A stretch of DNA of 37,615 nt from Wenzhouxiangella sp. (GTDB lineage: Bacteria; Pseudomonadota; Gammaproteobacteria; Xanthomonadales; Wenzhouxiangellaceae), in contig JAWLFD010000001.1 of the NCBI GenBank assembly GCA_041685745.1, positions 1 to 37,615 on the forward strand, in the 5' to 3' direction. The stretch's first letter is position 1. Every line of letters begins with the position of its first letter. Shown here piece after piece: positions 18,842 through 36,808 of the stretch. Made by a program: the position numbers and the translations under genes. The notes under the pieces are model-generated. The model searched no databases, was not told where the DNA came from, and worked only from the letters and a program-made list of their open reading frames with translations.

Positions 18842-21316
18842 TCAGGTCGAGTCGGCTGCCGGTTCCTTCCAGGCCAGCAGCATGCGCGCAAGCGCAGGCA
18901 GGAGAAGCATGGCGCCGACCATGTTGAAGATGAACATGAAGGCCAGCAGCACGCCCATGTCGGCCTGGAACTGCAGGGCCGAGAACAGCCAGGTACCGAC
19001 ACCGACCGCCAGCGTGATGGCGGTGAAGAACACCGCCTTGCCGGTCAGACGCAGGGTGCGCAGATAAGCCTCGTCGAGGTCGTAGCCATCCTGCATGAAC
19101 GCGCGCATGCGGCTGAAGATGTAGATGCCGTAGTCCACGCCGATACCCACCCCCAGGGCAACCACCGGGAGGGTATTGACCTTCAGGCCGATACCCATGT
19201 AGGCCATCAGCGCATAGGCCATGTAGCTGACCAGGACCAGGGGCAAAACAATACAGGCGGTGCCCAGCACGGTGCGGAACGTGAGCAGACACAGAATGAT
19301 GATGGCCGAGTAGACGTACAGCAGCATCGGCAGCTGGGCGGCTTCGACTTCCTCGTTGGTCGCGGCCATGACGCCGACGTTGCCGGTGGCCAGGCGGAAG
19401 CGCAGGCATTCCTCGCACGGCTCGCCGTCCTGCATGACCAGGTCATCCATGACATCCCCGGCCGGATGGAAATCCAGCTGTTCAACGAAGATCTCTTCGC
19501 GCAGTTCACGCACCGCCCGCACCACCCGAATGATCGTTTCGGCCTTGTGGTCGGTGGTGAACAGCATGATCGGCATGGCGCTGCAGTCTTCATTGAGCAG
19601 CCCGGTCGAGGTCTCGATGTTCTGGAGGTTCTGGCGCATGATGAAGGCGTTGCGCGGCAGCACTTTCCAGCGCAGGTTGCCCTCGTTCCAGCCGGCGTTG
19701 ACCGTCTTGGCCACCATCGGCAGGGAGACCACCTGCTGAACGCCCTCGACGTTGGCCATGCGCCAGGAAAAGCGATCGATGGCCTCCATCACCGCGTGCG
19801 ATTCCGTGCACGCGCCCGGGATGGTTTCGGCGATGATGGAAATCAGGTCGGTACCCAGCGCAAATCGCTCGGCGATCAATTCGGCGTCCTGGTTGTAGCG
19901 AGCCTCTGGCCGCAGCTCGGGAACCCCGGGCTGCGAGTCGCCGATCTGCATGTCCTGGCTCTTGATCCAGGCAAACGCGAACAGGCCGGCACCGACAAGC
20001 ACCGCAATGGTCGCCACGCGGGGTCGGGTGAAACTGGCGATCATGAGCCAGATCACCCCGGTCTTGCGTCCGTTCTCGTACTGGCGTTCGCGGAAGGCTT
20101 CGGGGTTGCGAAGCCGGATGTAGGACAACAGGATCGGCAGCAGCACCAGGTTGGTGAAAATGATGACGGCAACGCCGATGCTGGCCGTAATCGCCAGTTC
20201 CTGGATGATGCGGATATTGATCAACAGAATGGTCAGGAAGCCGATGGTATCGCTGATCAGCGCAATCGACCCCGGCGCCAGCAATCGGGAGAAGGTGCGC
20301 TTGGCCGCTTCGAGACTCGAGATGACCTTGATGTCGTCCAGCCGGTGCCCGTCCTGAGCCAGACCGACCGGCGAATTGCCGCCGAAAAGCTTTTCGGCAT
20401 TCCAGCCGGAGATCATCTGGACACCGTGGCTGACCCCGATGGCGAAGACCAGGAAGGGGGTGAGGATATTCATCGGGTCGATGCCGAAACCCAGCAGGCT
20501 CAACAGACCCAGTTGCCAGATTACCGCCGTGACCGAGCAGACCAGCGGCAGGACCGTCAGCCAGACCGAACGCGAATAGAGAAACAGCAACAGGGCGGTG
20601 ATGACGAAAGCCACGCCGAAATAGACCACGACTCCGCGTGCGCCATCGGCAATGTCGCCGACAATCTTGGCAAAACCGATGATGTGGACGGTATAGCCTT
20701 CTCCCTCGAAGTCGGTGCGAATCTGCTCGAGCTGCCCGGCGACGTCCTGATAATCCAGCGACTCACCGCCGGCCGCGCCCTGCTCGAGAAGGTTGGCCGA
20801 GACCAGGGCGCCGGAGAAATCCTCGGCCACCAGGCGACCCACCTCGCCGGAAGCCACGATGTTGGAGCGCACGCGTTCGAAAGCGTCGGGCGACGGCGAG
20901 AAATCGGCCGGGATGACGTTGCCGCCGGCAAAGCCGTCCTCGACGATCTCCACGAAGCGGACGTTCGGGGTGAAGATCGAGCGCACGCTGGCTCGATCGA
21001 CGCCGGGGATGAAAAATACCCGGTTGCTGATTTCCTCGAAGCGCTCGAAGAATTCGTCGGTGAACATGTCACCGTCTTCGGCCATGAGCGCGACCATGAT
21101 CCGGTTGGCGCCACCGAACTCGCGTTCATACTCCATGAACGTCTGCATGTATTCATGCTCGAGCGGCAACTGCTTGAGAAATCCGGCGTCAACTCGCAGC
21201 TGCGTCAGAAAGAACAGCATCATCGCGGTGCCGACAACGAAGATCAGCAGGACCAGCGGTCGGACCCGAAAGACCGCGTCGGCTGCCCGGCGGCTGAACC
21301 GGCTCGACTCACTCAT
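18842..21316 (-). CDS. MMPL/RND-superfamily inner-membrane transporter (DUF1302/DUF1329-associated type)
   Basis: Two repeats of TM, periplasmic domain, then about 5 TMs; GIGVDYGIY motif; 824 aa; overlaps the YCF48-like gene. Confidence 0.9.
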   Translation of the reverse strand: MSESSRFSRRAADAVFRVRPLVLLIFVVGTAMMLFFLTQLRVDAGFLKQLPLEHEYMQTFMEYEREFGGANRIMVALMAEDGDMFTDEFFERFEEISNRVFFIPGVDRASVRSIFTPNVRFVEIVEDGFAGGNVIPADFSPSPDAFERVRSNIVASGEVGRLVAEDFSGALVSANLLEQGAAGGESLDYQDVAGQLEQIRTDFEGEGYTVHIIGFAKIVGDIADGARGVVVYFGVAFVITALLLFLYSRSVWLTVLPLVCSVTAVIWQLGLLSLLGFGIDPMNILTPFLVFAIGVSHGVQMISGWNAEKLFGGNSPVGLAQDGHRLDDIKVISSLEAAKRTFSRLLAPGSIALISDTIGFLTILLINIRIIQELAITASIGVAVIIFTNLVLLPILLSYIRLRNPEAFRERQYENGRKTGVIWLMIASFTRPRVATIAVLVGAGLFAFAWIKSQDMQIGDSQPGVPELRPEARYNQDAELIAERFALGTDLISIIAETIPGACTESHAVMEAIDRFSWRMANVEGVQQVVSLPMVAKTVNAGWNEGNLRWKVLPRNAFIMRQNLQNIETSTGLLNEDCSAMPIMLFTTDHKAETIIRVVRAVRELREEIFVEQLDFHPAGDVMDDLVMQDGEPCEECLRFRLATGNVGVMAATNEEVEAAQLPMLLYVYSAIIILCLLTFRTVLGTACIVLPLVLVSYMAYALMAYMGIGLKVNTLPVVALGVGIGVDYGIYIFSRMRAFMQDGYDLDEAYLRTLRLTGKAVFFTAITLAVGVGTWLFSALQFQADMGVLLAFMFIFNMVGAMLLLPALARMLLAWKEPAADST

Positions 21317-22400
21317 GGCTCAGTCCGTCCGCACCCGCCAATACCAGCGTGCCGTTCGGCGCAATGAGCACCGATACATAGTCACTGCCCAGGCGGTCTT
21401 CGTCGAGATCGAAGCGCCCGTCTTCGGGTTCGTAGTGCAGGCGGGCAGCACCTGATCCGACCATCAGCGGACGACCCTGAGGATCGATCGTTCCGCCCAT
21501 GAGGGTCGATTCCAGTCCGGTCTCCAGTACCGTCCAGCTGTCGCCGAAGTCATCGCTGCGCTGAACGTGGCCGCGCAGACCGTAGGCCAGCACGGTGTCG
21601 CCTCCCAGATGGAGCAGGCCAAACATCGACCCGGAATAGGGAAAGCGGAAACTCTCCCAGGTCTGCCCGCCGTCGACCGTGCGGAAACCGTAGCCGCGCT
21701 CGGCCGCGATCATCTGGCGGCCCTGGCCAAGATCAAGGAACGCGTTGAGATGGCACTCCATGAACTCGTAGCATCCGCGGTCGAAATCCATGCTGGCGTC
21801 GTAGTATTCGTCGTCTTCCAGGCCTTCATCGACCGGATCACCCTCATCGGCCTGCTCCTCGAGCGCGGCCCGGGCAGCGGCCTCCCAATCGATCGCCTCA
21901 TTGGTGACCATGTCGGCCATGTCCAGGATCTCCCAGTGGCGCCCGGCATCCTCGGTGCGCATGAACAGTCCGTAAGCACCAACGGCGATACCGTTGTCAC
22001 CGTCGAAAAAGTGCACGTCCAGCAGCGGCTGTTCCCAGTCCGGCTCGAAATGCTGCAGGGTCCAGGTCTGGCCGAAATCGTAGCTGTGAATGATGGTACT
22101 GTCGTGACCCACGGCCCAGAGACGCTCATCGGCATAGGCCACGCGGGTCAGGGCTGCCTGAACCGGCACAAACTCCGCCTGGGTCCAGTTGCGACCATCC
22201 TCGGAAAACAGGACATGACCGCGCTCACCCACCGCGACCAGGTTGCGGGGCGTCTGGATGACGTGCAGGATGAGACTCTCCGATGCCAGCGGCGCGTGGA
22301 CCGCCGGACGCGGCAGTTCATGCGGCGGCGCGGCCGCCAGCGGCGCGACCAGCAACAAGACCAGGACAATCGCCTGACACATGCAGACGCGCGCGCTCAT
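21309..22400 (-). CDS. YCF48-related / BNR-repeat beta-propeller periplasmic protein
   Basis: Signal peptide; Asp-box repeats SEDGRNW, SYDFGQTW, TEDAGRHW, TVDGGQTW, SDDFGDSW; AVGERG. Confidence 0.88.
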   Translation of the reverse strand: MSARVCMCQAIVLVLLLVAPLAAAPPHELPRPAVHAPLASESLILHVIQTPRNLVAVGERGHVLFSEDGRNWTQAEFVPVQAALTRVAYADERLWAVGHDSTIIHSYDFGQTWTLQHFEPDWEQPLLDVHFFDGDNGIAVGAYGLFMRTEDAGRHWEILDMADMVTNEAIDWEAAARAALEEQADEGDPVDEGLEDDEYYDASMDFDRGCYEFMECHLNAFLDLGQGRQMIAAERGYGFRTVDGGQTWESFRFPYSGSMFGLLHLGGDTVLAYGLRGHVQRSDDFGDSWTVLETGLESTLMGGTIDPQGRPLMVGSGAARLHYEPEDGRFDLDEDRLGSDYVSVLIAPNGTLVLAGADGLSHE

Positions 22401-22490: not shown

Positions 22491-23930
22491 TCAGCGCCGT
22501 CCGCGAACACGCAGCGCCTGCGGCGTGTAGTCACTGGCGCTCAGGTCCTCATCGAAGGTCATGACCGGATCCTGGTTGTCGATGCCGTTGGCGATATAGC
22601 GGCCCGACTGCAGATCCATGGTCGACTCGATCGTCACCCACAGCGTCGGGACGTCGTAGTAGTTGATCGAGTGGGCTTCGGACAGACGCCACATGTTGCC
22701 GCGCTGGTCATAGTGATCGATGATCGCGATCTGGTAGCTGTCGGCATCCAGGTACATGGTCCGGCGGGAATTGATGTGCCGGGTTCCTTCGCGCAGATTG
22801 GCCTCGACGATCCAGACCCGATGCAGTTCGTAGCGCATGTGCTCCGGGTTGAGATGTCCCGGGGTGACCAGATCGTCAGGCTCCAGCTCATCGCTGTGGG
22901 CCTGGTAGGAGTTGTAGGGAATGAACATCTCGCGCTGATCGACGATCTCCCAGGTAAACCGATCCATGGCGCCGTTGAACATGTCGGTCATGTCGTTGGT
23001 TCGCAAGCCGTCGGAGGCCGTGCCCGGGTTGTCGTAGGCGACGTTGGGGGCGCGCCGGACGCGCCGCTGGCCGGGATTGTAGATCCAGGCCTGGCGCGGC
23101 TGCTCGATCTGGTTGAGCGATTCGTGAACCAGCAGGATGTTGCCGGCCAGGCGCGCCGGTGATTCAACCTCCTGGAAGAAGTACAGCAGGATGTTGTTGG
23201 TGTCGGCAATCGTATTGCCTTCGACGTAGTACAGACCCAGGAACTCCTCGCGCAGGCGAATCAGCTGGTAGCTGCCGCGCGCGGTCGGGACCACCTGGTT
23301 GAAATAGCGCCGACCACCCGTGCCCTTGTATTTCATCTTGTGGTTCCAGACCAGCTCGTAGGCATTCTGCGGCAGCGGAAACGGCAGGCCCTCGGCGACG
23401 TTGACCACGCCCTCTCCCCCGGCCACCAGTTGTCCGGTCGAGGCATTGCTTCGGGTGGCCTCGTAAATGCGCTCGGGGAAGGAAGCCGAACGCCGGCTGG
23501 GGTAGATCTTCATCCGGAAGGTCTCCGGATAGCGTTCGAACGCCGCCTTGTGCCCGGCCGAGAGCTGGTCGGCATAGTCCTGGTAGTTCTCGGCGGTGAT
23601 CACGAACAGCGGCTCGTCGTCCGCGTAAGGATCCGGATGGCGGTCGCCGGGCTCGTAGCCGGCCGGCCAGTCATCGCGGCCCAGTCCACCGGTCCACTCG
23701 GGAATGGTGCCGTCGGCATTGCCGGCGCGCAACGAGCCCATCGGCGTGAGGTCCTGGCCGAGACGGGCGATGTTGGCCTCGGTCGCGGGAATGATGTAGT
23801 CGCCTTGTTCATCGGGCACGCCGCCGGTCTGCGCGCTCGCCGAGATCGACAGGGTGAGGACAACGGCAGCCATGGCGCCTTGCCGCGCGGCCTTTCGGCA
23901 GAAGTGGTTGTTCTGCAGTGTCTGCTTCAT
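22491..23930 (-). CDS. DUF1329 family periplasmic protein (soluble copy)
   Basis: GGAG RBS, signal peptide ending ASA-Q; LTPMG..RAGNADGTIPEWTGG, RQAWIYNPGQRRVRRAP, RYELHRVW motifs. Confidence 0.88.
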   Translation of the reverse strand: MKQTLQNNHFCRKAARQGAMAAVVLTLSISASAQTGGVPDEQGDYIIPATEANIARLGQDLTPMGSLRAGNADGTIPEWTGGLGRDDWPAGYEPGDRHPDPYADDEPLFVITAENYQDYADQLSAGHKAAFERYPETFRMKIYPSRRSASFPERIYEATRSNASTGQLVAGGEGVVNVAEGLPFPLPQNAYELVWNHKMKYKGTGGRRYFNQVVPTARGSYQLIRLREEFLGLYYVEGNTIADTNNILLYFFQEVESPARLAGNILLVHESLNQIEQPRQAWIYNPGQRRVRRAPNVAYDNPGTASDGLRTNDMTDMFNGAMDRFTWEIVDQREMFIPYNSYQAHSDELEPDDLVTPGHLNPEHMRYELHRVWIVEANLREGTRHINSRRTMYLDADSYQIAIIDHYDQRGNMWRLSEAHSINYYDVPTLWVTIESTMDLQSGRYIANGIDNQDPVMTFDEDLSASDYTPQALRVRGRR

Positions 23931-24024: not shown

Positions 24025-25980
24025 TCATCGACGTCCCCGGGTTCTCAGCGCCTGGGGCGTGTAACTACTCGGACTCAGCGGCACATCGAAGGTATTGACC
24101 GGATCCTGATTGTCCAGCCCGTTGGCGATATAGCGTCCGGACTGCAGATCCATGTGTACTTCGATGGACGACCAGTAGGTCGGTACATCGTAGTAATTGA
24201 TCGCATGCGACTCCGAAGCGCGCCAGAGTTGCCCGCGACCATCGTAATGGTCGATCAGGACGATCTGGTAGCTGTCCTCGTCGAGATAAAAGGTGCGGCG
24301 CGAGTTGATATGGCGAAATTCCGGCCGCAGTTCGGCTTCGATCACCCAGACGCGGTGCAGTTCGTAACGCGTGTAGTCCGGGTTGAGATGACCGGGCATC
24401 ACCAGGTCGTCGGGCGTGACGTCCCCACTGTGGATCCGGTAGGCATTGTAGGGAACGTACATTTCCCGCTTGCCGGCGATGCGCCAGGTGAACCGGTCCA
24501 TGGCGCCGTTGAACATGTCGGTCATGTCGTTGGTACGCAAGCCGTCGGAAGCGGTGCCGGGGTTGTCGTAGGCCACGTTCGGCGCCCGGCGGACGCGGCG
24601 CTGCCCGGGGTTGTAGATCCAGGCCTGGCGCGGTTGCTCGAGCTGGTTCAGGGTTTCATGCACGAGCAGGATGTTGCCCGCCAGCCGGGCCGGTGATTCC
24701 ACTTCCTGGAAAAAATACAGCAGGATGTTGTTGGTGTCTTCAATGGTATTGCCCTCGATGTAGTACAAGCCCAGCAACTCTTCGCGCAGGCGCACCAACT
24801 GATAGCTGCCGCTGGCGGTCGGCGCAACCTGGTTGTTGTAGCGGGTACCGCCGGTACCCTTGTGCTTGAGCTTGTGGTTCCACATCAACTCATAGGCGTC
24901 CTGGGGCAGCGGGAATGGAAAGCCCTCGGCGACATCGGCCACACCTTCACCGTCGGCAATCAACCGACCGGTCGTCGCATTCTCGATGCTGGCCTCGTAG
25001 ACGAATTCCGGAAAAGACGCGCTGCGCCGTGTCGGGTAGACCGCCATCCGATAGGTATCCGGATACCGCTCGAAGGTGGCCACCTGGCCGACGGACAGGC
25101 GATCGCGGTACTGCTGGTAGTTCTGCCCGGTGATCACGTACAGCGGCTCGTCATCGGCAAACGGATCGAGATGGCGGTCTCCCGGCTGGTAGCCGGCCGG
25201 CCAGTCTTCGCGACCCAGACCACCCTCCCAGGGCGGTATCCGACCGTCGGCACTGCCGGCCCGGATGGAACCCATGGGGGTCAGGTCGTCGCCAAGCCGG
25301 GCAATGTTCTGCGGCGTCCGGGCAATAATCACATCCTCATCCAGCGTCGCAGGCGAGGCTTCAGCCTCCGCTTCCGATGCCGTCTGGACCGCCGCCAGCT
25401 GCTCCTCGCGCAGGCGCTCGGCCTCCAGTCGCTCGGCCTCGGCTTCTTCAGCGGCCAGGCGTTCGGCCTCGGCCCGCTCGGCTGCCAGACGCTCGGCCAG
25501 CGCCTGCTCCTCGGCCAGACGCTCGGCTTCCACCCGCTGGGCCTCGGCCTCGGCAGCTCGCGCGGCCGCTTCGCGCTCTTCGGCCAGGCGCGCCTGCTCG
25601 GCCTCTTCAGCAGCCAGGCCCTCCGCCTCTTCGGCGGCTTCCCGAGCCGCCTCTTCGGCCGCCAGCCGTTCCGCTTCGGCCTCGGCGACTGCCTGCCGGG
25701 CTGCTTCCTCTGCCGCCCGCCGCTCAGCCTCGGCCTCTTCTCGCGCTGCCGCCTGCGCAGCCAAACGCTGCTCTTCGGCGTCGCGTTCGGACCGCTCGGC
25801 GGCTTGCCGTTCGGCCTCGGCCTGTTCTTCGGCCTCGCGCGTCGCACTCGCTGCTTCCGCCGACGCCCCGGTCTGATTGCCGTCCGGCCCGCCCGTTTCC
25901 GGCGGGACCGCACAGGCGGTGAAAACCAGCCCGAAGGCGACCAGAACCGCGACCCGCAGCGGGCTCAAGATAATGCTCAT
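24025..25980 (-). CDS. DUF1329 family lipoprotein with long N-terminal Ala/Glu/Arg helical stalk
   Basis: Hydrophobic signal ending in lipobox FTA-C; ~170-aa low-complexity helix; C-terminal ~435 aa highly similar to the adjacent DUF1329. Confidence 0.85.
   Translation of the reverse strand: MSIILSPLRVAVLVAFGLVFTACAVPPETGGPDGNQTGASAEAASATREAEEQAEAERQAAERSERDAEEQRLAAQAAAREEAEAERRAAEEAARQAVAEAEAERLAAEEAAREAAEEAEGLAAEEAEQARLAEEREAAARAAEAEAQRVEAERLAEEQALAERLAAERAEAERLAAEEAEAERLEAERLREEQLAAVQTASEAEAEASPATLDEDVIIARTPQNIARLGDDLTPMGSIRAGSADGRIPPWEGGLGREDWPAGYQPGDRHLDPFADDEPLYVITGQNYQQYRDRLSVGQVATFERYPDTYRMAVYPTRRSASFPEFVYEASIENATTGRLIADGEGVADVAEGFPFPLPQDAYELMWNHKLKHKGTGGTRYNNQVAPTASGSYQLVRLREELLGLYYIEGNTIEDTNNILLYFFQEVESPARLAGNILLVHETLNQLEQPRQAWIYNPGQRRVRRAPNVAYDNPGTASDGLRTNDMTDMFNGAMDRFTWRIAGKREMYVPYNAYRIHSGDVTPDDLVMPGHLNPDYTRYELHRVWVIEAELRPEFRHINSRRTFYLDEDSYQIVLIDHYDGRGQLWRASESHAINYYDVPTYWSSIEVHMDLQSGRYIANGLDNQDPVNTFDVPLSPSSYTPQALRTRGRR
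25357..25863 (-). repeat. Low-complexity coding repeat of degenerate AEAERLAAEE units
   Basis: 169 codons almost entirely A/E/R/Q/L, no Pro and one Gly; recurring GCCGAG/GAACGC/CTGGCC words. Confidence 0.85.
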
Positions 25981-25997
25981 CCCTTGCGCGCCCACGA

Positions 25998-27890
25998 TCA
26001 GAACGAGTAGCTGATCGAGCCCGAAACGAAGTCCCGGTCACCCAGCAGATTGTTGATGCCGGCACCAAAGAAGTTGGTGTAGGCAAAGTCCAGGCGCCAC
26101 TGAGACAGGTAGTTGAGCTGCAGCCCCAGCGTGGCCTGCTTGCGCCCGGCAATGAAGTTGCCACCCGGCCCGGGCGTGACGCCCTGCACATCATGATTGA
26201 ACGCCAGGCGCGGCGTCATGGACCAGGCCGAACCGAACACGTTGTTGTAGGTCGGCGCCACCACCAGGCGATAGCCCCAGCTGAACGCTGTTGCGAATCC
26301 GTCGTTCAGGGTGACCGGATTGCGGCTGTTGCCGCCGGTCAAGCGCGACGGCCCGCCGCCGGTATCGGTGCCGGGACCGTCGAAACGCATGACGGAACGA
26401 TCCGGCAGGTCCCAGAAGTGGGTCGCACCCGCCTCGGCCACGACCGCCACCTGGCTGGCGTTGATCCAGTTGTTCGGGCCGATCAGCTTGGTCAGCGTCA
26501 CCTGGGCCTGAGAGACTTCGCGGCGCTCGTAGCCGGGAATGAATTCACCCGGCGCGTACTGGCCCAGCTGACTGCGGAAGCGATCGTATTCGCTGGGCAG
26601 GGCCGCATTGAGCGGCGACAGGCCGGCGAACAGCAGCTCGACATCGTCGATCTGGATCGGCAGGTTGTCGCGATAGCTGACCTCACCCCCGACCGACCAG
26701 CCGGCGACGGTGGTATTGAAGCTCAGACCGAACAGGTTGATGTCTTCGGGGTATTCGACGATCACCCGCCCGGTCGTGACGTCCGGGCTGGTCACGGCCT
26801 GGCCGGACAACACCGGCAGACGGCTGTGGTAGTTGAGGTAGAACAGCCCGAACTCGGTGTCGTTCAGCCAGGGTGCAAAGTAGCGCAAAGCGATTCCGAA
26901 CTGGCCGGAGTCGCTGGGCTCGTTGTCCTGGGCCCGGCGCGGAAACGCGGCCGAGCACCCCAGAGCCACCAGCTGCGGGGGCAGCCCGGTGTCGCTCAGG
27001 CCGAACTGGCCCTGACGGCAGACCGGGTCGTAGAGGTCGGTGTTGCGCACCGGCTGCGGCACCAGGCCGAAGTTGAGCATGGCATATTGACCCCCCTCGG
27101 TGGCGAAGTCGTTGGTCGCGAAGAACGTTCCCGAGGGCTCGGCCTCGATCGCATCCCAGTCGAACATGACCAGCGCCTCGGCCGACAGGTTCGGCGTGAG
27201 ATCCATGCTGGCCCAGAGCATGTTCAACGGCAGGAAAGCATCCCGCAGCTCGGCGCCCGCAGTGCGCAAGGCGGTGATATCGACGGGGTTGACCGCATTG
27301 ATGCCGCCGGGAATGAACGTGCTCTCACCCCAGCTGACGACCTGCCGACCCAGACGCATCGACAGCAGCCGGCCGCCGGGCATGTCGAAATCGCCGTACA
27401 GGTAGGCGTCGAGCAGTCGCGCCCGCTCCCCAACCCTGTCTTTCGCGTCGTCAGACAGGAAATCCTTGTCGTTGAGGGTAAAGTCGTAGAAATAGTTGCC
27501 GCGAACGAAAGCGCCGAAGTTCCGGTACCCAACCGACAGCTCGGAGGTGACGCGCGCGACGTTGAAGATCGGATCCCACTGATCGAAATTCAGGTTGCCG
27601 TCATCGGAGTTGGCGGAAAAACGGCCGGTGGCTGCCATCTGCTGCTCCAGCGGCGCCTGGACGATCAGCGGGTTGAAGAAGGCCTTGGCCACCAGGTCGT
27701 CGTCGCGTTCGGATGCGCGCACGCCGATCGCGTAACTGAGGGTGGTATCGAGCCGAATGCTGACGTTGTCGGTACTCAGGTCGATGGCGGCGGCCGGGTT
27801 GGCCGCCACGGCCAGAGCGACGGCGCTGGCGAGCAGGCAGGGACGCACGATGCGAGACTGCCGAGGGTCCTGTTTTGCTTGGCGATTCAT
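25998..27890 (-). CDS. DUF1302 family outer-membrane beta-barrel protein
   Basis: Signal peptide; N.DDGNLNF, RLGRQVVSWGESTF, NYHSRLP, YPEDI.LFGLSF, DRDF; terminal YSF beta-signal; AGGGAG RBS. Confidence 0.88.
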   Translation of the reverse strand: MNRQAKQDPRQSRIVRPCLLASAVALAVAANPAAAIDLSTDNVSIRLDTTLSYAIGVRASERDDDLVAKAFFNPLIVQAPLEQQMAATGRFSANSDDGNLNFDQWDPIFNVARVTSELSVGYRNFGAFVRGNYFYDFTLNDKDFLSDDAKDRVGERARLLDAYLYGDFDMPGGRLLSMRLGRQVVSWGESTFIPGGINAVNPVDITALRTAGAELRDAFLPLNMLWASMDLTPNLSAEALVMFDWDAIEAEPSGTFFATNDFATEGGQYAMLNFGLVPQPVRNTDLYDPVCRQGQFGLSDTGLPPQLVALGCSAAFPRRAQDNEPSDSGQFGIALRYFAPWLNDTEFGLFYLNYHSRLPVLSGQAVTSPDVTTGRVIVEYPEDINLFGLSFNTTVAGWSVGGEVSYRDNLPIQIDDVELLFAGLSPLNAALPSEYDRFRSQLGQYAPGEFIPGYERREVSQAQVTLTKLIGPNNWINASQVAVVAEAGATHFWDLPDRSVMRFDGPGTDTGGGPSRLTGGNSRNPVTLNDGFATAFSWGYRLVVAPTYNNVFGSAWSMTPRLAFNHDVQGVTPGPGGNFIAGRKQATLGLQLNYLSQWRLDFAYTNFFGAGINNLLGDRDFVSGSISYSF

Positions 27891-27904: not shown

Positions 27905-30052
27905 TCAGTCAGTCTCGATAAGCGAAGGATTGCCGATCACGACGGCAGCGCCGCCCGATGAGGTCATGCTCGCCGCCTGGCCCTGCATTTCGGCCGTGAC
28001 CGCCGGAGCGGCCGACGGATCCAGCAGCGAACCATGCCCGCCCTGAAGCAGCCGAACCGCACCGCGGATGCCCATCGGATCCTGGGTCGATTCGGCAATC
28101 GAATCCAGGCCCATGACCCGGATCAGAGGCTCGGTGCCCGACAGAGGCGCACCCTGGACCGCGTTGGGCACCACGCTGTCGCCGGCGACCTGCTGCAGCA
28201 GCACGCTGTTGGTCTCGACCGTCAGCGCACCCCAGTTGACCGGGTCGGCGGAATCGACCACGGTTTGCGCGGCCAGCAGGAACTGGGCGAAGTCCGGGGT
28301 CCCGGGTTCGACGCCGGCAGCGGCCAGGCCGGCGCGTATCACCGGTCCGAAAGTTTCCGATCCCGCCAGCAGATTGGCAATGCCGCCGCCGGGCACCGAA
28401 AGCACCCCGTTGTTGACGGTCGGCTCGACGGCCAGGAACGGAATGCCGGCCATGGCGCCCAGGGACAGACCGACGAAATTGATGTTTGATCCGTCCAGGT
28501 CGCCCAGGCCGTCGCCGTCGAGATCGATGAAAGGCACGTTGACGGCAACCGAGGACAGATCGACCTGGGCCTGGCGCAGGTTGTCGCGCGAGGTCAGCAG
28601 GCTCTGCAGGTTGATGAACCACGCCCCGGAGCCATCGATGCTGCCGTCGGGGCCGGGCGCGCCGCTTTCGTTGTCTTGCAGATCCAGATTGAAAGTGCGC
28701 TCTTTGGCAATCTGTCCAAAGGGCGTGTTGCCGATGTAGAGCGGGCTGGTGACGTCGGTGATGCCATGCAGCGGCTTGTCGATGGCCACGACCGCAAAAC
28801 CGATCGAAGCCATGGTGTCGGCCAGCGCCAGCATCTGGCTGCGGTTGCCGGTAATACCGTGCTGGAAGATGACCACTGGCCAACCGGACGCCGGGCGGAC
28901 CCGACCTGAATTTGCATTGGGCACGGTAATGAGCATCGGCGCGGCCTGGCGGGCGCGTTCGACCGGAATCGGGTTGGCGACCGTGACGTTGGTGGATTCA
29001 GGATCCAGACCCAGGCCGTCGAACGGCGGCACGTAGGCACCCGCCTCGGCCTGCCAGAACCCGGTCAGCGGCGCTGACGGATTGTCTTCGCTCGGCACCG
29101 GCAGGAAATACGGCAGCTCGACCACGCCCAGGTACAGATCGGCGATGCCCGGCGAGGCACCGGGCGGCAGCACGTCGGCCGTGGTCAGGCAGGTTCCCGG
29201 CGCGAGGCAGGCCTGAGCCACCTGGGTGCTGGTCGGGCGCAGCGTTGAGCGGATGACCCCCAGGACCGGCGTGATCGCCTGGGTGGTGGCGGTGAACGAC
29301 AGCACGATATCGTCGCGATCGATCCCGGCCGAGGCCGCGGCCATTTCCTGCGCGTTGGTCAGCTGGCGCAACGGCTCCAGCGCCTGGGCCGTGCCGTTGT
29401 CGAGCAGGGGATCGGTGCTGTTGCCCTCGGCGTCGACCAGCGGCTCGGTCCGCTTGGCCAGGAAGTAGGTCTGGGACGGGGTGGCCGGATTGCCGCTGGT
29501 GTCGACGATGCCATCGGTCACCACCGCCATGTAGCCGGTGTTTTCGGCCAGCGGCGTCAGCGGCAGCACGACCACGCCGCTGGGATCTCCGGGATTGGCC
29601 AGCGCAACGTACTCGGCGCCGGGCGTCAGTTCGCGATTGATGCTCTCCACCGCGATCGTGCCGAAGACGAACTGCACCTCGAACATCCGCACCGTGCTGC
29701 CCGGCACCACGCTGTCGGGGTCGATTGCATCGGAAAAGGAAAAACTCCACGGAGCGACCGTACTGAAACCGTCCAGCGCGTTCAGGGCCACGGTCGGGTC
29801 GCCGAAGTCTTCGGGGTCGGCTACGGGAATGTTCAGGGTCAGATCTTCAGATCCGGACCGGAGCAGGTTGTTGGGAAACGGCAGGATGCCCGCCGAAGGG
29901 TCGAACTGGGCCGTCAGCGTGGCGGTGACCGGATCACCGTCGGGCTTTTCGGCCGGGTCGACTTGCGTTGCGCGGTCCACGTCCGAACTACCGCCGCAGC
30001 CGACAAGCCAAAACAGCGCCAGACCCATGGCCGGTACCAGGCGTCTCTTCAT
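27905..30052 (-). CDS. Lipoprotein lipase/phospholipase, Pla-1/cef (VolA-like) alpha/beta hydrolase
   Basis: Lipobox LVG-C; P.PNN, LNALDGFST N-terminal domain; WPVVIFQHGIT, AID.PLHG, RDNLRQ, GLSLG nucleophile, DSVVPN, GTEPL, HGSLLDP; GGAG RBS. Confidence 0.85.
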   Translation of the reverse strand: MKRRLVPAMGLALFWLVGCGGSSDVDRATQVDPAEKPDGDPVTATLTAQFDPSAGILPFPNNLLRSGSEDLTLNIPVADPEDFGDPTVALNALDGFSTVAPWSFSFSDAIDPDSVVPGSTVRMFEVQFVFGTIAVESINRELTPGAEYVALANPGDPSGVVVLPLTPLAENTGYMAVVTDGIVDTSGNPATPSQTYFLAKRTEPLVDAEGNSTDPLLDNGTAQALEPLRQLTNAQEMAAASAGIDRDDIVLSFTATTQAITPVLGVIRSTLRPTSTQVAQACLAPGTCLTTADVLPPGASPGIADLYLGVVELPYFLPVPSEDNPSAPLTGFWQAEAGAYVPPFDGLGLDPESTNVTVANPIPVERARQAAPMLITVPNANSGRVRPASGWPVVIFQHGITGNRSQMLALADTMASIGFAVVAIDKPLHGITDVTSPLYIGNTPFGQIAKERTFNLDLQDNESGAPGPDGSIDGSGAWFINLQSLLTSRDNLRQAQVDLSSVAVNVPFIDLDGDGLGDLDGSNINFVGLSLGAMAGIPFLAVEPTVNNGVLSVPGGGIANLLAGSETFGPVIRAGLAAAGVEPGTPDFAQFLLAAQTVVDSADPVNWGALTVETNSVLLQQVAGDSVVPNAVQGAPLSGTEPLIRVMGLDSIAESTQDPMGIRGAVRLLQGGHGSLLDPSAAPAVTAEMQGQAASMTSSGGAAVVIGNPSLIETD

Positions 30053-31544: not shown

Positions 31545-33122
31545 TCAATCGGACCCGGGCAACCCAGGGTAGCCGGGCGCAAACGGCACGGGCGCGGCCT
31601 GTGCGTTCTGGTAGCGTTCCATGTCTGCCCGCAGGTCGGCTCGCGACTCCAGCCGCCCGCTCTTGAGCGCCTCGAACATCGCCTGGGCCTGCAGATCCAC
31701 CGCATCGTCGAACCGCCCGAGCGCGGCGAACACCATGGCCAGGGTCGCCGAGTTGTCCGCCGTCGGCGCAATCTGGTACACGGACTCGGCCCATTGCAGC
31801 GCTTCCTCCAGCCCCTCGGCCGAGGCCGCCCCGCAGGTCGCGCGGACACGCGCCAGCGCCCCCAGCACATCGCCATCGGTGGGGAACCGGACGCTCAATT
31901 CTTCCAGGGCATTCTCCCCACGACCGCACTCTCCGGCAGCCAGCATGGCCAACGCGGCCCAGAAACCGTAGCGCGCGCTTTCGGCCCGCTCGACGTCGCC
32001 GAACAATCGGCTGAAGCGTTGCTCGGCCTCGGCGAACTCGCCGGCCTCCAATTCAAGAAAGGCCAGCGCCTCGGCCGCCTCGACCTGGTCGGCATCCAGC
32101 GCCAGCGACCTGTCATAAGCGCTTGCCGCCGCCTTGGCCGCGCCCTGCAGCTCGCGGACCTGACCCAGCAGGAAGTGTGCTCTTGCCGCGTCGGCATCCA
32201 GGCCGATCCAGCGCTCGAACGCGGCCGCCGCTTCCTCCAGATCACCCTGGCGAGCGACGACCTGGCCGTAGTTTTCGAGAATCACCGGATCGTCCGGCGC
32301 AAGCTGAGCGGAGATCGCCAGCAGCCGCCGGGCTTCGTCCAGGTCACCGGCATCGGCTCGCTGCAGTCCGATCTCGAGGTAGAACTGGGGCGAACGCGAC
32401 TGTCTCTGAACACGCTCGAGCAAAGGGTCGGCGATCGGCTCGCTGCCCGAACCGATCCGTTCGATCTGTTCACGCGCGCGCTCCACATCGCCCAGCGCTC
32501 GATAAGCCATCGCCAGCGGTTGATGCAGGCGGGTCGCTTCCGGGCTGATCTCCAGCGCCCGTTCAAACCGTTGCGCGGCCGCTGCATGTTCGCCCCGGGA
32601 CAGCAGCACCCGGCCCTGCCCGGCCAGTGCGGCGGGCGCGTCGGGCGCCAGCGCCAGGGCGCGCTCGAAGTCCGGCTCGGCCGCCTCCGGCCGACCCTGA
32701 TCCAGCCGGATCTGGCCCCGCCGGATGTGGGCCACCGGATCGAACGGGTTGCGCTCGACCGCCTGGTCAAGATGCGCCACCGCCTGATCGAGTTCGCCGC
32801 GATCGATCGCCAGCATACCGAGCAGGTAATGCCAATCGGCGACCGACGGATTCAGCTCACGCGCGTTGCGGTAGGCCTGCTCGGCCTGGGCCGAAAAGCC
32901 GTGCGCAAACAGGACGTCACCGAGCCGGCCGTAGGCATCGGAACGCACTTCCGGCGCCGCTTCGGCAGGCGCCGGGATGGCGGCTCGGGCCGCATCAATG
33001 GCCTCCAGCACCGCCTCCGGCGTATCGCCTCGGTCCACGGGGTCGACCTCGCGCAGTTCGGCCCACAGAGGCTGAGAAAGCAACATCGCGAGCAGCAGCA
33101 AGACGATCACCGGCGATTTCAT
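31545..33122 (-). CDS. Exported tetratricopeptide-repeat protein (about 525 aa)
   Basis: ATG overlaps the upstream stop (ATGA); signal peptide; many TPR units (e.g. WHYLLG...AVAHLDQAVERNP). Confidence 0.88.
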   Translation of the reverse strand: MKSPVIVLLLLAMLLSQPLWAELREVDPVDRGDTPEAVLEAIDAARAAIPAPAEAAPEVRSDAYGRLGDVLFAHGFSAQAEQAYRNARELNPSVADWHYLLGMLAIDRGELDQAVAHLDQAVERNPFDPVAHIRRGQIRLDQGRPEAAEPDFERALALAPDAPAALAGQGRVLLSRGEHAAAAQRFERALEISPEATRLHQPLAMAYRALGDVERAREQIERIGSGSEPIADPLLERVQRQSRSPQFYLEIGLQRADAGDLDEARRLLAISAQLAPDDPVILENYGQVVARQGDLEEAAAAFERWIGLDADAARAHFLLGQVRELQGAAKAAASAYDRSLALDADQVEAAEALAFLELEAGEFAEAEQRFSRLFGDVERAESARYGFWAALAMLAAGECGRGENALEELSVRFPTDGDVLGALARVRATCGAASAEGLEEALQWAESVYQIAPTADNSATLAMVFAALGRFDDAVDLQAQAMFEALKSGRLESRADLRADMERYQNAQAAPVPFAPGYPGLPGSD

Positions 33123-34876
33123 GGGCCGACCGCCGGCTCGCTTCGACCGCTGCCGCGGCGCAGCGAATGATATTGATCGACCGCCAGATCGGAAAACCAT
33201 TCGCGCTGCCCGTCCGGCCAGTGCACCTCCACGGTACGCGAGGCCGGGTTATCGGCCAGCCCGAAGATCACCCGGGGATCGTTGGCCGAGGCGTAGGATC
33301 CATCGGCCCGCGCGCGCCGACGCCGATCCGGCCCGTCGTTCTCATGGAGCCAGGCGACGGCCTGGGTCAGCACCCGCCCGCGCCCGTCGGCCAGGGCCAG
33401 CCCCAGCCAGTGGTGCTCGTCCGCCTTGCGATTGATCAGCACCCGTGCCGGACCGTTGATGTTGACGATGACCAGGTCGGGCCGGCCGTCGTTATCGATA
33501 TCGCCCACCGCCAGGCCGCGGCCGACGTGCGATGCCTCCAGCGCGGCGCCCGCGCGATCGGTCGCCTCGAGGAAGCGTCCGTCACCCCCGTTCAGGAAGA
33601 GCTGATCCGGCTGATGGTAAGGAAACGGGTCGCCGGCGGCGACCAGGTCTTCCTCGATGACCACGGCACCGTTGACCGCGAACAGGTCCAGCCAGCCGTC
33701 GTTGTCGACGTCCAGCCAGGCGGTACCAAACCCCGTGGAAGGCAGGCTGGGCGCACCCAGACCGCTGGTCGCCGTCACGTCGGTAAACCAGCCCTGGCCA
33801 TCGTTGCGATACAGGGTGTTGGTTTCGCGCCGCATGTGGGTGATGAACAGATCCTCGGCCCCGGAGCGGTTGTAGTCGCCGGCATCCACGCCCATGCCGG
33901 CCTCCATGCTGCCGTCGGCGTTGACCGCAGTACCCGCCATGAAACCGTCGTCGACGAACGTGCCATCCCCCTGGTTGACCCAGAGCGAGTTGGCCGAGCC
34001 GTCGTTGGCCACGAAGACGTCGATGCGACCGCTGCCGTTGAAGTCGGCGGCCACCACGCCCAGCCCGTGACGGGCAGTGCCGGCGATGCCCGCCGCCTCG
34101 GTCCGATCGACGAACCGACCTTCGCCCTGGTTGATGAACAGCGTATCGCGCACGCCCTGGTAGGCGGAAGGCGAACAGTAGTCCTGCCGGTTGGTGGCGG
34201 CCGAGCGGCAGATGCGGTGACCCTGGAAGCTGAAGTCCACGTAGTTGGCGACGAACAGATCGAGCAGGCCGTCGTCGTTGAGATCGGCAAAACTGGCGCT
34301 GACGCTCCAGCGGGCATCGCCGACGCCGGCCTGGTCGGTGATGTCGGTAAACGTGCCGTCGCCGTTGTTGCGCCAGAGCTGGTTGGGGCCGAAGTTGAGC
34401 ACGTAGAGATCCTGCAGGCCGTCGCCATCGATATCGCCAACGGCCACGCCCATGCCGTAGCCGCGGGCGTCTATGCCGGACCGTTCGGTGACGTCGGTGA
34501 AGCGGATCTTCCAGTCACCGTTATCGTCCTGGAACGAATCGTTGCGGTAAAGCCGATCGCCTGGCGGCCGTTCGGACGGGTCGATGTCCGGACCCAGCGT
34601 ACCGCCCTGGACGAGATACAGGTCGAGCAGTCCGTCACCGTTGTAGTCAAGCAGGGCCGCGCCGCCGCCCATGATCTCGGGAAAATAGTACTGGCCGCTC
34701 ATGCCGTTGTCGTAGCGAAAGTCGATGCCGGCCTCGGCGGTGACATCGATGAACCAGTCGCTGTCGGCTCCGGCCGCCGATGCAGCCGCACCCACCAGCG
34801 CGCCAAGGGCTAGCCACCGGAGACACAAGCGCGAGAGGGACTTGAGGGTTTCTTCCATGCCGGAACAGGTTTTCAT
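33119..34876 (-). CDS. CRTAC1-family protein (FG-GAP/VCBS propeller plus ASPIC/UnbV domain), secreted copy
   Basis: Seven DxD/NxDGxxD-like Ca-binding loops, F.DVT..AG repeats, C-terminal GSYASANDPRVIFGL...VHWPDG; exact start uncertain. Confidence 0.88.
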   Translation of the reverse strand: MKTCSGMEETLKSLSRLCLRWLALGALVGAAASAAGADSDWFIDVTAEAGIDFRYDNGMSGQYYFPEIMGGGAALLDYNGDGLLDLYLVQGGTLGPDIDPSERPPGDRLYRNDSFQDDNGDWKIRFTDVTERSGIDARGYGMGVAVGDIDGDGLQDLYVLNFGPNQLWRNNGDGTFTDITDQAGVGDARWSVSASFADLNDDGLLDLFVANYVDFSFQGHRICRSAATNRQDYCSPSAYQGVRDTLFINQGEGRFVDRTEAAGIAGTARHGLGVVAADFNGSGRIDVFVANDGSANSLWVNQGDGTFVDDGFMAGTAVNADGSMEAGMGVDAGDYNRSGAEDLFITHMRRETNTLYRNDGQGWFTDVTATSGLGAPSLPSTGFGTAWLDVDNDGWLDLFAVNGAVVIEEDLVAAGDPFPYHQPDQLFLNGGDGRFLEATDRAGAALEASHVGRGLAVGDIDNDGRPDLVIVNINGPARVLINRKADEHHWLGLALADGRGRVLTQAVAWLHENDGPDRRRRARADGSYASANDPRVIFGLADNPASRTVEVHWPDGQREWFSDLAVDQYHSLRRGSGRSEPAVGP

Positions 34877-34975
34877 GCTGGAGACTGCTTCGTCGGAGGA
34901 CTGACCTGCATCAGGGGCAGGCGACCGGCCATGATGCCACTGGCCCGGCGTCGATGCAATTTGATCATGCCTCGC

Positions 34976-36808
34976 TCACGGCTCACGAGCGATCACGTGC
35001 AGTCGATCGACCGCCGGGTCGTCGATCACCTGCTCTGCTCCGTCCGGCCAGGTCACGACCAGACGGTCCGCGCGATCGCGCGTGCCCAGGCCGAACGTCA
35101 CCGGCAGCTCCACCTGCGAAAGATAGCTGCGACCGGGCATGACCCTGCGTGTCTGGACCAGGTCGTCGGCCTCCAGGCGAATCCGGGCACCGATGGCATC
35201 GGTATTCGGCGGTTGCCCTTCCAGACGCACGCGCAGCCAGTGATGCCCGGCACGGGTGTCGTTGCGCAACAGCAGCGGCGGGCCTGCGATCTGGGTCACG
35301 ATCACGTCCAGTCGGCCGTTGCCGTTAATGTCGGCGTAGGCCGCACCGCGCCCGACCATCGGTCGGGCAAGGTCGCCGATTCGGTCACGATCCAGCGGCT
35401 GCAGGGTCCGCGGACAGACGGCACCGCAGTTCCAGAACAGCTGGCCCGACTGTCGGTACCGCTGGCTGGACTGGACCCGGTTGATGTCGTTTTCGACGTG
35501 GCCGTTGGCCTGCAGGTAATCGAGCCGGCCGTCGAGATCGTAGTCGAAGAAGAACACGCCGAAAGTCAGCGCCAGTCGGGTGGCGGCACCGATACCGGCG
35601 CCGATGGACTGATCGGCAAACCCGCCCAGCCCGGCCTGGCCGACGTAGAACGAACTCATCTCGTTGGCGAAATTGCCGATGGCAATGGCCAGATTGCCGT
35701 CGCTGTCGAACCGGACCGCGTCGATACCCATCGCGCCGGTGGCCAGACCGTTGCGATCGAAGCCCAGGCCGAGCTCGCTGGCCTGCTCGACGAACAGACC
35801 CTCGCCCTGGTTGACGAAGGCAAAATTGCGCACCGTGTCGTTGGCCACCACCAGGTCCAGCCGGCCATCGTCGTTCAGATCGACCGGAACAACCGCCAGC
35901 GCCTTGCCTTCGGGTTCGCCGGTGGCGGGGTGATCGACGTGAATCCCGGCCTCGGCGCTGACGTCGCGGAAGCTGGCGTCGCCGTTGTTGAAGTACAGGT
36001 AGGACTGGACCCCCTGGAAATTGGTCGGCGGCCCGTAGGCCCGGCCGATGCCGGTCAGGCGATAGTCCACCTCGATGTCGATCTCGCGCGACCACTCGAC
36101 GTAGTTGGCGACGAACAGATCCAGGTCGCCGTCGCCATCGGCGTCGAAAAACGCCGCGCTGGTGCTCCAGCGGTCGGCCTCGCCGGCCAGGCCCGCGCGC
36201 TCGGTGGCCTCTTCGAAACGCCCGCCGCGGTTGACGAAAAACCGGTTCGGACCGACCGCGGTGACGAACAGGTCCGGGTAGCCGTTGCCGGTGACGTCGG
36301 CCACCGCCAGGCCCATCCCGTAGAAGGAATGCCCGGCCAGGCCGGCGGCTTCGGTGACCTCCCGAAAGCGGCCCTGACCGTCATTGGCGTAAAGGCGCAG
36401 AGTGGGCGACGCGGGCTCGGCCTCCGGACCGAAGGGCCAGGCGCCGGAGTCGACGAACAGAAGATCCTGGTGGCCGTCCTGGTTGTAGTCCAAAAACGCC
36501 ACGCCACCGCCCATGGTCTCCGGCAAAAGGCGCTCGCCGAAGGCACCGTTGGCGTGCACGAAATCGATACCCGCCGCCTCGGTGATGTCGACAAACTGCC
36601 CGCGCGGTGGCTCGGGGACTTCGGGCCGCGCCATCAGGCTGGCAAGATCCACCTGCGCCTGCTCGATCGGCGGCGGTGGGGCCGGCTGCAAAAGATGCCG
36701 GACCAGCAGCGCCCCGGTCACGAGCACGGCAAGCCCGGCCAGCACCCACAGCGAGCGCCTGAAAGCGCGGGTGATGCGATCGGCGCCGGTAAGCGAGGCT
36801 TTCGTCAT
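34976..36808 (-). CDS. CRTAC1-family protein (FG-GAP/VCBS propeller plus ASPIC/UnbV domain), probable membrane-anchored copy
   Basis: N-terminal TM followed by Pro-rich linker; DYNQDGHQD, DADGDGDLD, DLNDDGRLD, DYDLDGRLD loops; GRSYLSQ...FGLG...TWPDG; ATGA overlap with the upstream gene. Confidence 0.88.
   Translation of the reverse strand: MTKASLTGADRITRAFRRSLWVLAGLAVLVTGALLVRHLLQPAPPPPIEQAQVDLASLMARPEVPEPPRGQFVDITEAAGIDFVHANGAFGERLLPETMGGGVAFLDYNQDGHQDLLFVDSGAWPFGPEAEPASPTLRLYANDGQGRFREVTEAAGLAGHSFYGMGLAVADVTGNGYPDLFVTAVGPNRFFVNRGGRFEEATERAGLAGEADRWSTSAAFFDADGDGDLDLFVANYVEWSREIDIEVDYRLTGIGRAYGPPTNFQGVQSYLYFNNGDASFRDVSAEAGIHVDHPATGEPEGKALAVVPVDLNDDGRLDLVVANDTVRNFAFVNQGEGLFVEQASELGLGFDRNGLATGAMGIDAVRFDSDGNLAIAIGNFANEMSSFYVGQAGLGGFADQSIGAGIGAATRLALTFGVFFFDYDLDGRLDYLQANGHVENDINRVQSSQRYRQSGQLFWNCGAVCPRTLQPLDRDRIGDLARPMVGRGAAYADINGNGRLDVIVTQIAGPPLLLRNDTRAGHHWLRVRLEGQPPNTDAIGARIRLEADDLVQTRRVMPGRSYLSQVELPVTFGLGTRDRADRLVVTWPDGAEQVIDDPAVDRLHVIAREP

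Follow-up and report, generated by a model that had tools for sequence, protein, structure and literature searches.

A DUF1329 protein behind a lipobox and a long predicted helical rod in Wenzhouxiangella: a possible tethered periplasmic carrier

The stretch of DNA analysed here (37,615 nucleotides of a Wenzhouxiangella contig, hereafter the window) holds an operon of the DUF1302/DUF1329/YCF48/RND type, in which one of two DUF1329 genes encodes a protein whose DUF1329 head lies behind a lipobox and a 200-residue spacer rich in Ala, Glu and Arg. Such a make-up would be that of a lipid-anchored carrier facing the periplasm. The DUF1302/DUF1329/YCF48/RND transporter is known and mechanistically unsolved, whereas the anchor and the rod on DUF1329 are new, conserved and repeatedly acquired. 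We give somewhat better than even chances to the reading that the protein is a tethered periplasmic shuttle that moves lipophilic cargo, probably inward.

Introduction

A 2016 preprint proposed that a widespread system of DUF1302, DUF1329, YCF48 and RND proteins acts as an envelope transporter. AmeABCD of Castellaniella is described as HAE3-type efflux (PMC6394551), and a DUF1302/DUF1329/BNR/RND cofitness module was proposed to export a wall component in bioRxiv 072470, where DUF1302 and DUF1329 are also reported in Delftia outer-membrane vesicles. In P. putida the cassette is stated to be required for growth on Tween 20 and fatty esters (bioRxiv 2020.07.04.188060), and the plain DUF1329 protein of this species has been predicted in two complexes, one with the barrel and one with the BNR and RND proteins (PMC10866462); these complexes are AlphaFold predictions, which that paper calls weak for two of the three contacts. 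A plain DUF1329 protein with the barrel is given an ipTM of 0.84 in PMC13499233.

For Wenzhouxiangella, a proteome table covering three growth conditions is given in PMC7691419 for a strain with a single operon DUF1329 gene of plain length (481 aa). The values are 0.22/0.23/0.07 for the lipase, 0.32/0.44/0.15 for the barrel, 0.43/0.54/0.19 for the 481-aa product of the DUF1329 slot, 0.009/0.010/0.009 for YCF48 and 0.012/0.024/0.010 for the RND protein. By this table, plain DUF1329 is close to the barrel in abundance and 19-57 times as abundant as RND and YCF48, the membrane RND being possibly under-counted, and so many barrels and carriers per pump argue against fixed 1:1 spanning complexes. 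The same source reports no lipase activity on olive oil for the proteome strain, and feeding by direct cell contact for one Wenzhouxiangella.

Results

The stalked gene and its operon

The minus-strand open reading frame at 24025-25980 encodes 651 aa from an ATG; an in-frame GTG at 25995 would add five residues. An earlier note on this DNA had read in it a lipobox FTA-C with Ala at +2, a linker, a stalk and a complete DUF1329 domain, and all four are present in the 651-aa frame. Pattern scoring found the n-region, the h-region and the lipobox Cys of a lipoprotein, and by composition the Pro/Gly linker after Cys23 comprises residues 24-38. The stalk is free of Pro and rich in A, E and R as the note had it, the run being 177 aa long (residues 33-209; 36% A, 29% E, 12% R) and not 169. 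The features of the operon are the following:

18842..21316, minus strand: MMPL-type RND inner-membrane transporter, AmeD-like (Pfam MMPL match alone)
21309..22400, minus strand: YCF48/BNR propeller, AmeC-like (Pfam PSII_BNR)
22491..23930, minus strand: plain (unstalked) DUF1329 paralogue with cleavable-type signal, 479 aa (Pfam, sequence)
24025..25335, minus strand: DUF1329 head of the stalked protein, residues 216-651 (Pfam match 282-646), predicted LolA-superfamily fold (Pfam, Foldseek)
25336..25398, minus strand: linker 2, residues 195-215 (pLDDT <50 at residues 196-213 in the full-length model)
25399..25848, minus strand: A/E/R-rich rod, residues 45-194, predicted single continuous helix (AlphaFold2, charge pairs, dN/dS)
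25849..25911, minus strand: linker 1, short and Pro/Gly-rich, residues 24-44, predicted disordered (pLDDT <50 over most of residues 23-43)
25912..25980, minus strand: lipoprotein-type signal peptide ending in the lipobox FTA-C23, with a predicted lipidated Cys, Ala at +2 and Val at +3 (sequence pattern)
25998..27890, minus strand: DUF1302 outer-membrane barrel, AmeA-like (Pfam E 1.8e-175)
27905..30052, minus strand: VolA/Pla-1 family lipase with lipobox, first gene of the operon (TIGR03502 above cut-off; Pfam)

The order of transcription is VolA/Pla-1 lipase, DUF1302, stalked DUF1329, plain DUF1329, YCF48 and MMPL-type RND. VolA is displayed on the cell surface; the Pfam scan of the operon found no dedicated surface-export gene. 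As in operons of the AmeABCD type, DUF1302, DUF1329, COG4447/YCF48 and RND genes stand together in conserved order, and the same is found in relatives. The DUF1329 protein expected of the type is soluble, periplasmic and about 450 aa long, a description that suits the adjacent paralogue and fails for the stalked copy (651 aa, with a lipobox), which we therefore class as a variant of the AmeABCD type. The paralogue is 74% identical to the stalked copy over 458 aligned residues and, in agreement with the earlier reading, carries a normal signal of the cleavable type and lacks both lipobox and stalk. A PDB sequence search with it gave no significant match.

The stalk is a real part of the gene. 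Contigs from three of four independent DNA runs cross it without a gap, two of them running from the signal to the domain, and relatives keep it; an assembly artefact, or absence from relatives, which had been named beforehand as grounds for abandoning the idea, is thus rejected. A low-complexity habit of the whole genome is rejected as well, the stalk being the sole A/E/R stretch of more than 60 residues in this 82%-complete genome and the runner-up, in an IF2-like protein, measuring only 59 aa. Although other frames are open across the GC-rich stalk, a wrong frame or a downstream start is rejected because nucleotide differences between relatives fall mostly at third positions of the called frame and because the lipobox Cys stands in frame ahead of the stalk in 49/49 stalked loci scored with an intact N-terminus.

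Three metatranscriptomes gave small pieces only, one of 148 bases inside the stalk, which were not counted as expression evidence, and a promoter/terminator scan stayed at chance level. No NCBIfam model matched the stalked protein at E 1e-8. Its nearest named homologues are Wenzhouxiangella proteins, with up to 95% identity in the head. Databases name stalked proteins simply DUF1329 proteins, and in the Atlas the W. marina homologue (P0012, 671 aa) falls under that bare name in a 62-member cluster of 660-aa proteins.

The DUF1329 head

The Pfam DUF1329 profile is matched from position 1 to 368 by residues 282-646 (487 bits, E 4.5e-146), so the domain is complete. Foldseek places the modelled head closest to 9tp6, LolA3 of P. 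gingivalis (E 1.7e-16, TM by target 0.86), followed by 3bk5, 4z48 and 3buu. With a full PF07044 match and a modelled LolA-like fold, the head would belong to DUF1329 within the LolA superfamily, and the fold suggests that its groove may hold a hydrophobic ligand. This predicted fold would be common to LolA3, the other Foldseek matches, LolA and LolB; the head of the stalked protein is larger, its length being about 430 aa compared with about 240 aa. LolA is unanchored, and a short linker tethers LolB to its membrane. To our knowledge, neither has a long rod.

The rod

That the stalk is a helical rod, as first proposed, is predicted by two AlphaFold2 models and by its charge pattern. With a 150-row alignment, AlphaFold2 gave one helix at residues 45-194, with pLDDT 83-92 over most of it and low-confidence linkers on both sides; for the stalk alone and with no alignment, it gave one helix at residues 36-208. 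The predicted single helix spans 150-173 residues, with a contour of 22-26 nm at 0.15 nm per residue. The persistence length of single alpha-helices (SAHs) is quoted as 15 nm in PMC5347031, and with this value the mean end-to-end reach was estimated by hand at 18-20 nm, linkers and head excluded.

The favoured pairs of SAHs are E to R/K at +3 and R/K to E at +4 (PMC5347031). Over 49 stalks, whose pair counts are not independent as the stalks are mutually related, the former pair is 1.9-fold enriched over shuffles (47 of the 49) and the latter 2.3-fold (46 of the 49), while like charges at +3/+4 are down to 0.45 and large hydrophobic residues make up 6%. The sequence agrees with the SAH definition given in PMC5347031 in being rich in E, R and K, in having both types of pair and in having no hydrophobic seam; it is unusual for an SAH in being Ala-rich (37%) and acidic (net charge -28). 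A coiled coil was ruled out, with no power at period 3.5 or 7 and no heptad, and these features together with the spacing of charge pairs and the scarcity of large hydrophobic residues amount to an SAH signature. A folded-back Ala hairpin was seen in neither monomer model, AlphaFold having a tendency to give such sequences long helices.

Gly121, the only Gly of the rod, lies at its middle, and about half of the homologues have a single Gly within the rod, mostly near the middle. Linker 1 ranges from 3 to 57 residues in 49 homologues, with a median of 15 and a length of 3-4 residues in several.

The stalk is under purifying selection. Of 10 pairs of relatives, nine gave it a dN/dS of 0.01-0.24 and one was saturated, on an alignment built on protein that somewhat lowers dN; the head gave 0.015-0.078 in the compared pairs. 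In eight of the nine scorable pairs the stalk has diverged more quickly than the head.

Distribution of stalked forms

All 56 other genomes of the family Wenzhouxiangellaceae that are at least 90% complete contain DUF1329. On inspection of the loci, a stalked form is present in 40 of them, accompanied by a plain copy in 20 and alone in 20, and 16 have the plain form only. The architecture had been called unfamiliar, and it is not a one-off, since it is the commoner state in the family. Four of the 40 stalked genes end at a contig edge within the stalk, and in three genomes the order of the stalked and plain copies is reversed. In the stalked-only genomes inspected, the stalked gene occupies the slot between DUF1302 and YCF48 that is filled elsewhere by the plain gene. 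Six plain-only genomes lie within the genus of the window, of which five have a size of 1.8-2.1 Mb; the Wenzhouxiangella strain that preys on cells has only a plain-length gene in its operon.

Three families of the order contain stalked forms, as does one distant clade, in Pseudomonadales. In a second family of the order (f9), 11 of the 14 genomes in one genus and two of the three in another have K-rich stalks, and the 21 genomes of a third genus show no long frame. In the remaining family (f8), a stand-alone stalked copy is present in at least two genomes, among 150 of 281 matches. Stand-alone stalked copies outside the operon are found in f8, in genus g45 and in Pseudomonadales. A class-wide draw of 400 genomes had DUF1329 in 53, with a stalk in 0/78 matches. 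Among the best 150 representatives at 50% identity are 11 TPR fusions and two proteins with both lipobox and stalk. Of the latter, P0189 has 39% identity to the head of the window protein, and via it three further stand-alone stalked genes were traced in genomes of Pseudomonadales type, out of 85 DUF1329 frames at 80 loci. Long frames in G071, G097, G062, G194, G229, G363, G629 and G474 were rejected as upstream read-through with no stalk.

Other additions to DUF1329 were also seen. In another lineage, an ExbB/TonB operon ends with a gene in which DUF1329 is fused to the TPR protein, and P0197, a distant DUF1329 lipoprotein, has PKD domains together with Pro/Thr linkers of the kind usual in surface proteins.

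Anchor, stalk length and origins

A survey of homologues for stalks and for variation in stalk length, suggested in the earlier note, was carried out on 119 proteins. Lipobox and stalk occur together in 85, and 30 are plain; four are stalked and lack a pattern match (two are cut at the N-terminus, two carry the Cys in a variant motif), and a lipobox never occurs where the stalk is missing. In this set 105-248 residues, a 2.4-fold range, separate the Cys from the domain. In P0062 the Cys and the stalk are both lost. Across 49 loci the distance from Cys to domain is 163-253 residues (median 206, SD 21), and by lineage it is 163-239 in f9, 204-212 in f8 and 174-239 in three Pseudomonadales loci. 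The repeat units vary between strains, with a best period of 6 to about 40 residues, and the cation changes from R to K between families.

Head-domain trees put the stalked forms in five places. These are quick LG+G4 trees (57/138 rows and 34 rows), with groups named after the first tree was seen. AU tests reject a single stalked clade taken strictly (p 1e-58; 7e-10 with Pseudomonadales), and even one with the family-core plain copies inside (p 1e-36), so that a single origin of stalked forms is rejected for the head-domain tree. The sister group of the stalked Pseudomonadales genes consists of plain copies of the same lineage. On these trees we take at least two separate origins of the stalk as secure and consider four or five likely, a number that gene conversion between paralogues could have raised.

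The membrane that holds the anchor is less clear. It had been assigned to the outer membrane by the +2 rule, and Asp+2 is indeed absent in 49/49 loci and in 84/85 homologues, the exception being P0050. In the same genome the +2 residue is Asn in BamD, Ala in Pal and LolB, and Gly in LptE, and LolB starts Cys-Ala-Val as the stalked protein does. The assignment is not established by the rule, however, because Asp+2 is missing as well from the genome's one RND adaptor (membrane-fusion) lipoprotein, an expected inner-membrane protein that starts Cys-Gly-Ser like several stalked homologues, and because helical linkers keep RcsF in the inner membrane of E. coli, as reported in bioRxiv 2021.01.05.425367. 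We favour the outer membrane over the inner by a little.

Discussion

The closest known systems are AmeABCD of Castellaniella defragrans and the cofitness module (Sama_1588-1591; PP_0765/0766 with PP_2018/2019), which have the same four families in the same order and a full DUF1329 head. AmeB is described as a predicted soluble periplasmic protein of 451 aa, whereas the window copy has a lipobox and a 200-residue rod, and the window operon has in addition an extra plain DUF1329 copy and a leading VolA/Pla-1 lipase. In mycobacteria, LppX-MmpL7 and LprG-Rv1410 likewise pair a lipoprotein lipid carrier with an inner-membrane transporter (an MmpL for LppX); according to PMC4709180, LprG moves lipid between vesicles. 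Both systems work in export. They are of another family, the Pfam scan of the window protein having given DUF1329 and LolA_like only. We know of no helical rod and no co-encoded barrel in these systems. RcsF is an outer-membrane lipoprotein whose linker length must match the width of the periplasm for it to reach its inner-membrane partner (PMC5736177); it differs in that its linker is disordered and of 32 residues, and in that it signals and carries no cargo. In the openly searchable full-text literature on DUF1329, DUF1302, Wenzhouxiangella lipoproteins and lipoprotein tethers, we found no description of a stalked, lipid-anchored DUF1329 protein, which agrees with the impression of novelty recorded earlier.

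We infer from this make-up that the protein is lipidated and faces the periplasm. With a hinge at either end, the predicted single-helix rod would allow the head, with its predicted LolA fold, to reach both the DUF1302 barrel and the YCF48/RND complex, on which it would dock alternately. The cargo would be lipophilic, most likely acyl chains or esters freed by the co-encoded lipase, and would be moved inward. The leash would be an optional refinement, with the plain form doing the same job by free diffusion. Indeed, the stalk is not needed for the core function, since it is absent in 16/56 family genomes and in all 78 class-wide matches.

The argument for a tethered shuttle is that an anchored carrier can visit both membranes only if its leash is long enough to bridge the gap, and this is the pattern seen: anchor and stalk are coupled throughout the 119 homologues, a length near 200 residues is held while repeat units and cation change, the SAH charge pairs are kept across the 49 stalks, and the stalked heads do not form one clade in the AU tests. 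Moreover, the stalked gene is the sole DUF1329 found in 20/56 family genomes and sits, where inspected, in the slot of the plain gene. A carrier role between the barrel and the RND/YCF48 proteins, as suggested at the outset, fits the published predictions that put the plain protein in two different complexes (PMC10866462, PMC13499233); the excess of DUF1329 and barrel over RND and YCF48 in the proteome (PMC7691419) and the need of the cassette for growth on Tween 20 and fatty esters (bioRxiv 2020.07.04.188060) point the same way. Against it stand the homologue stalks as short as 105 residues, within a 2.4-fold range, and the 48-kDa head, which on its rod has to thread the peptidoglycan. The published complexes are themselves predictions, weak for two of three contacts (PMC10866462), the direction is disputed by the description of AmeABCD as efflux (PMC6394551), and the proteome strain had no lipase activity on olive oil (PMC7691419). 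Furthermore, the stand-alone stalked copies of f8, g45 and Pseudomonadales are not explained by the slot argument, and what look like separate origins could in some cases be products of gene conversion between paralogues.

The likeness to TolA bears on a second explanation. Domain II of TolA is also a long helical spacer rich in Ala and charged residues (median 192 residues, range 110-335, PMC12204202), which bears out the earlier comparison of the stalk with this periplasm-spanning domain. The stalked protein has a lipobox in place of the SHLS transmembrane helix (its N-terminal hydrophobic segment contains no His), DUF1329 instead of domain III and neighbours other than tol-pal, and is an analogue of TolA and not a member of its family. 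An anchor, most simply in the inner membrane, and a rod of this length might thus act as a static strut in the manner of TolA or TonB, fixing the head permanently to the barrel, or to another partner, in the opposite membrane, with no shuttling. The retention of RcsF in the inner membrane by helical linkers (bioRxiv 2021.01.05.425367), a linker 1 of only 3-4 residues in several homologues, and the DUF1329-TPR fusion that closes an ExbB/TonB operon, and thereby ties DUF1329 to inner-membrane machinery in a second way, are consistent with such a strut. We nevertheless judge it unlikely, given the flexible linkers predicted at both ends of the rod, the single Gly, mostly mid-rod, in about half of the homologues, the plain form that functions strut-free, and a stalked protein with no SHLS motor-binding helix.

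Still less likely, in our estimate, is that the anchor merely stops the carrier from leaking out or leaving in vesicles, or enriches it at one membrane, and that the spacer is a tolerated low-complexity expansion whose exact length is irrelevant. The free turnover of repeat units, the faster divergence of the stalk in 8/9 scorable pairs, the 16/56 plain-only genomes, with five of the six in the genus at 1.8-2.1 Mb, and the report of DUF1302 and DUF1329 in Delftia vesicles (bioRxiv 072470) would all suit such a retention tether. It does not account for the lack of any short-spacer anchored form among 119 homologues, for the similar lengths in separate lineages (174-239 in Pseudomonadales, 163-239 in f9, 204-212 in f8), or for a helix-stabilising charge pattern that is kept, with dN/dS well below 1.

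A surface collector, that is, a lipoprotein flipped outward whose rod lifts a lipid-binding head past the LPS to gather lipase products or bind prey membranes, is improbable: the co-encoded VolA/Pla-1 lipase lipoprotein, the contact feeding of one genus member (PMC7691419), the stand-alone stalked paralogues beside an intact plain operon and the surface-type linkers and PKD domains of P0197 lend it some colour, but the operon copies speak against it, since a stalked form at the surface would leave the periplasmic step empty in the 20/56 family genomes where it is the sole DUF1329. In addition, the cell-preying strain has only a plain-length operon gene, and the window operon has no dedicated surface-export gene.

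Returning to the tethered shuttle, a broader claim, to which we give somewhat less than even chances, is that it is a design distinct from free shuttles, bridges and tunnels, in which a LolA-fold carrier would swing cargo between the barrel and the RND pump on a single-helix arm of periplasm length. Such a design would have been invented independently four or five times and would have replaced the free carrier in many genomes. The repeated gain of an anchor with a 200-residue rod, and never of an anchor alone in the sets examined, is comparative evidence for a head that visits both membranes. A leashed natural version also makes the role of DUF1329, whether enzyme, adaptor, bridge or shuttle, open to direct test: should function vary with the length of the rod and shift with the width of the periplasm, the head must visit both membranes. 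If the reading is true, a bacterial periplasmic example would be added to the known single-alpha-helix spacers, and the arm, whose length would track the width of the periplasm, could be lengthened or shortened to prove that the whole system works by shuttling.

Variation in the rod and anchor of the stalked DUF1329 proteins

The predicted helical rod of the stalked DUF1329 protein of the window contains a glycine:

25618-25620, minus strand: codon of Gly121 in the rod

A rod-internal glycine is present in 25 of the 49 stalked loci scored and in 47 of 86 homologues, mostly as a single residue lying chiefly at 0.45-0.65 of the rod length, and it is possible that it acts as an elbow. The remaining half of the stalked homologues, including the closest relative, have a rod free of glycine.

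Variation is also found at the N-terminal end. In one genus of the same order (family f9, genus g9; loci L055, L057, L060 and L100), short Lys-Cys-Gly repeats are placed between the lipobox and the rod, and we take these repeats to be reminiscent of the precursors of Cys-rich, low-complexity metal-binding peptides. The stalked homologue P0050 carries Asp at position +2, which from sequence makes it a natural candidate for inner-membrane retention. In the homologue P0062 the lipobox Cys is replaced by Tyr, and the rod is lost as well.

Operon partners and plain-only genomes

Two partners encoded in the operon contain cysteine pairs:

21309-22400: YCF48 protein, with an acidic stretch followed by two closely spaced Cys
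18842-21316: RND protein, whose second periplasmic region includes a short segment with a pair of Cys

At locus L053 (G062, a single-contig genome, 70% complete), both genes are split across frames, probably owing to sequencing indels. With the query used, DUF1302 was not detected near eight operons containing YCF48, RND and DUF1329 (L112, L114, L117, L127, L130, L145, L186 and L188), whose barrel may be encoded elsewhere in the genome or be too divergent for this query.

Five of the six genomes of the genus that encode only plain DUF1329, devoid of lipobox and stalk, are small (G267, G202, G012, G009 and G023; 1.8-2.1 Mb versus 2.6-4.2 Mb). Of these, the four that were placed in the tree share a single clade with a further small genome, which suggests that the stalked form was lost during streamlining.

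Fusions of DUF1329 to other domains

DUF1329 is combined with PKD domains and Pro/Thr linkers in P0197, a lipoprotein of 1198 aa, and with thrombospondin type 3 repeats in P0239. A further stretch of the window encodes the following:

31545-37611, minus strand: TPR genes flanking two FG-GAP/ASPIC-UnbV genes

TPR-DUF1329 fusions of ~860 aa account for 11 of the best 150 representatives at 50% identity (P0158, P0163, P0168, P0177, P0186, P0194, P0205, P0206, P0209, P0248 and P0256), and the Atlas holds two clusters of them, with 92 and 95 members. Two loci encode such fusions:

L211, 7134-13237 (genome G426): run of ExbB/TolQ-like, ExbB2 and TonB genes, with the fusion at its end
L246, 2-4982 (genome G696): gene arrangement resembling that of L211

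The TPR fusion is a second route linking DUF1329 to envelope machinery, and its position beside ExbB/TonB genes hints at an involvement of the Ton motor.
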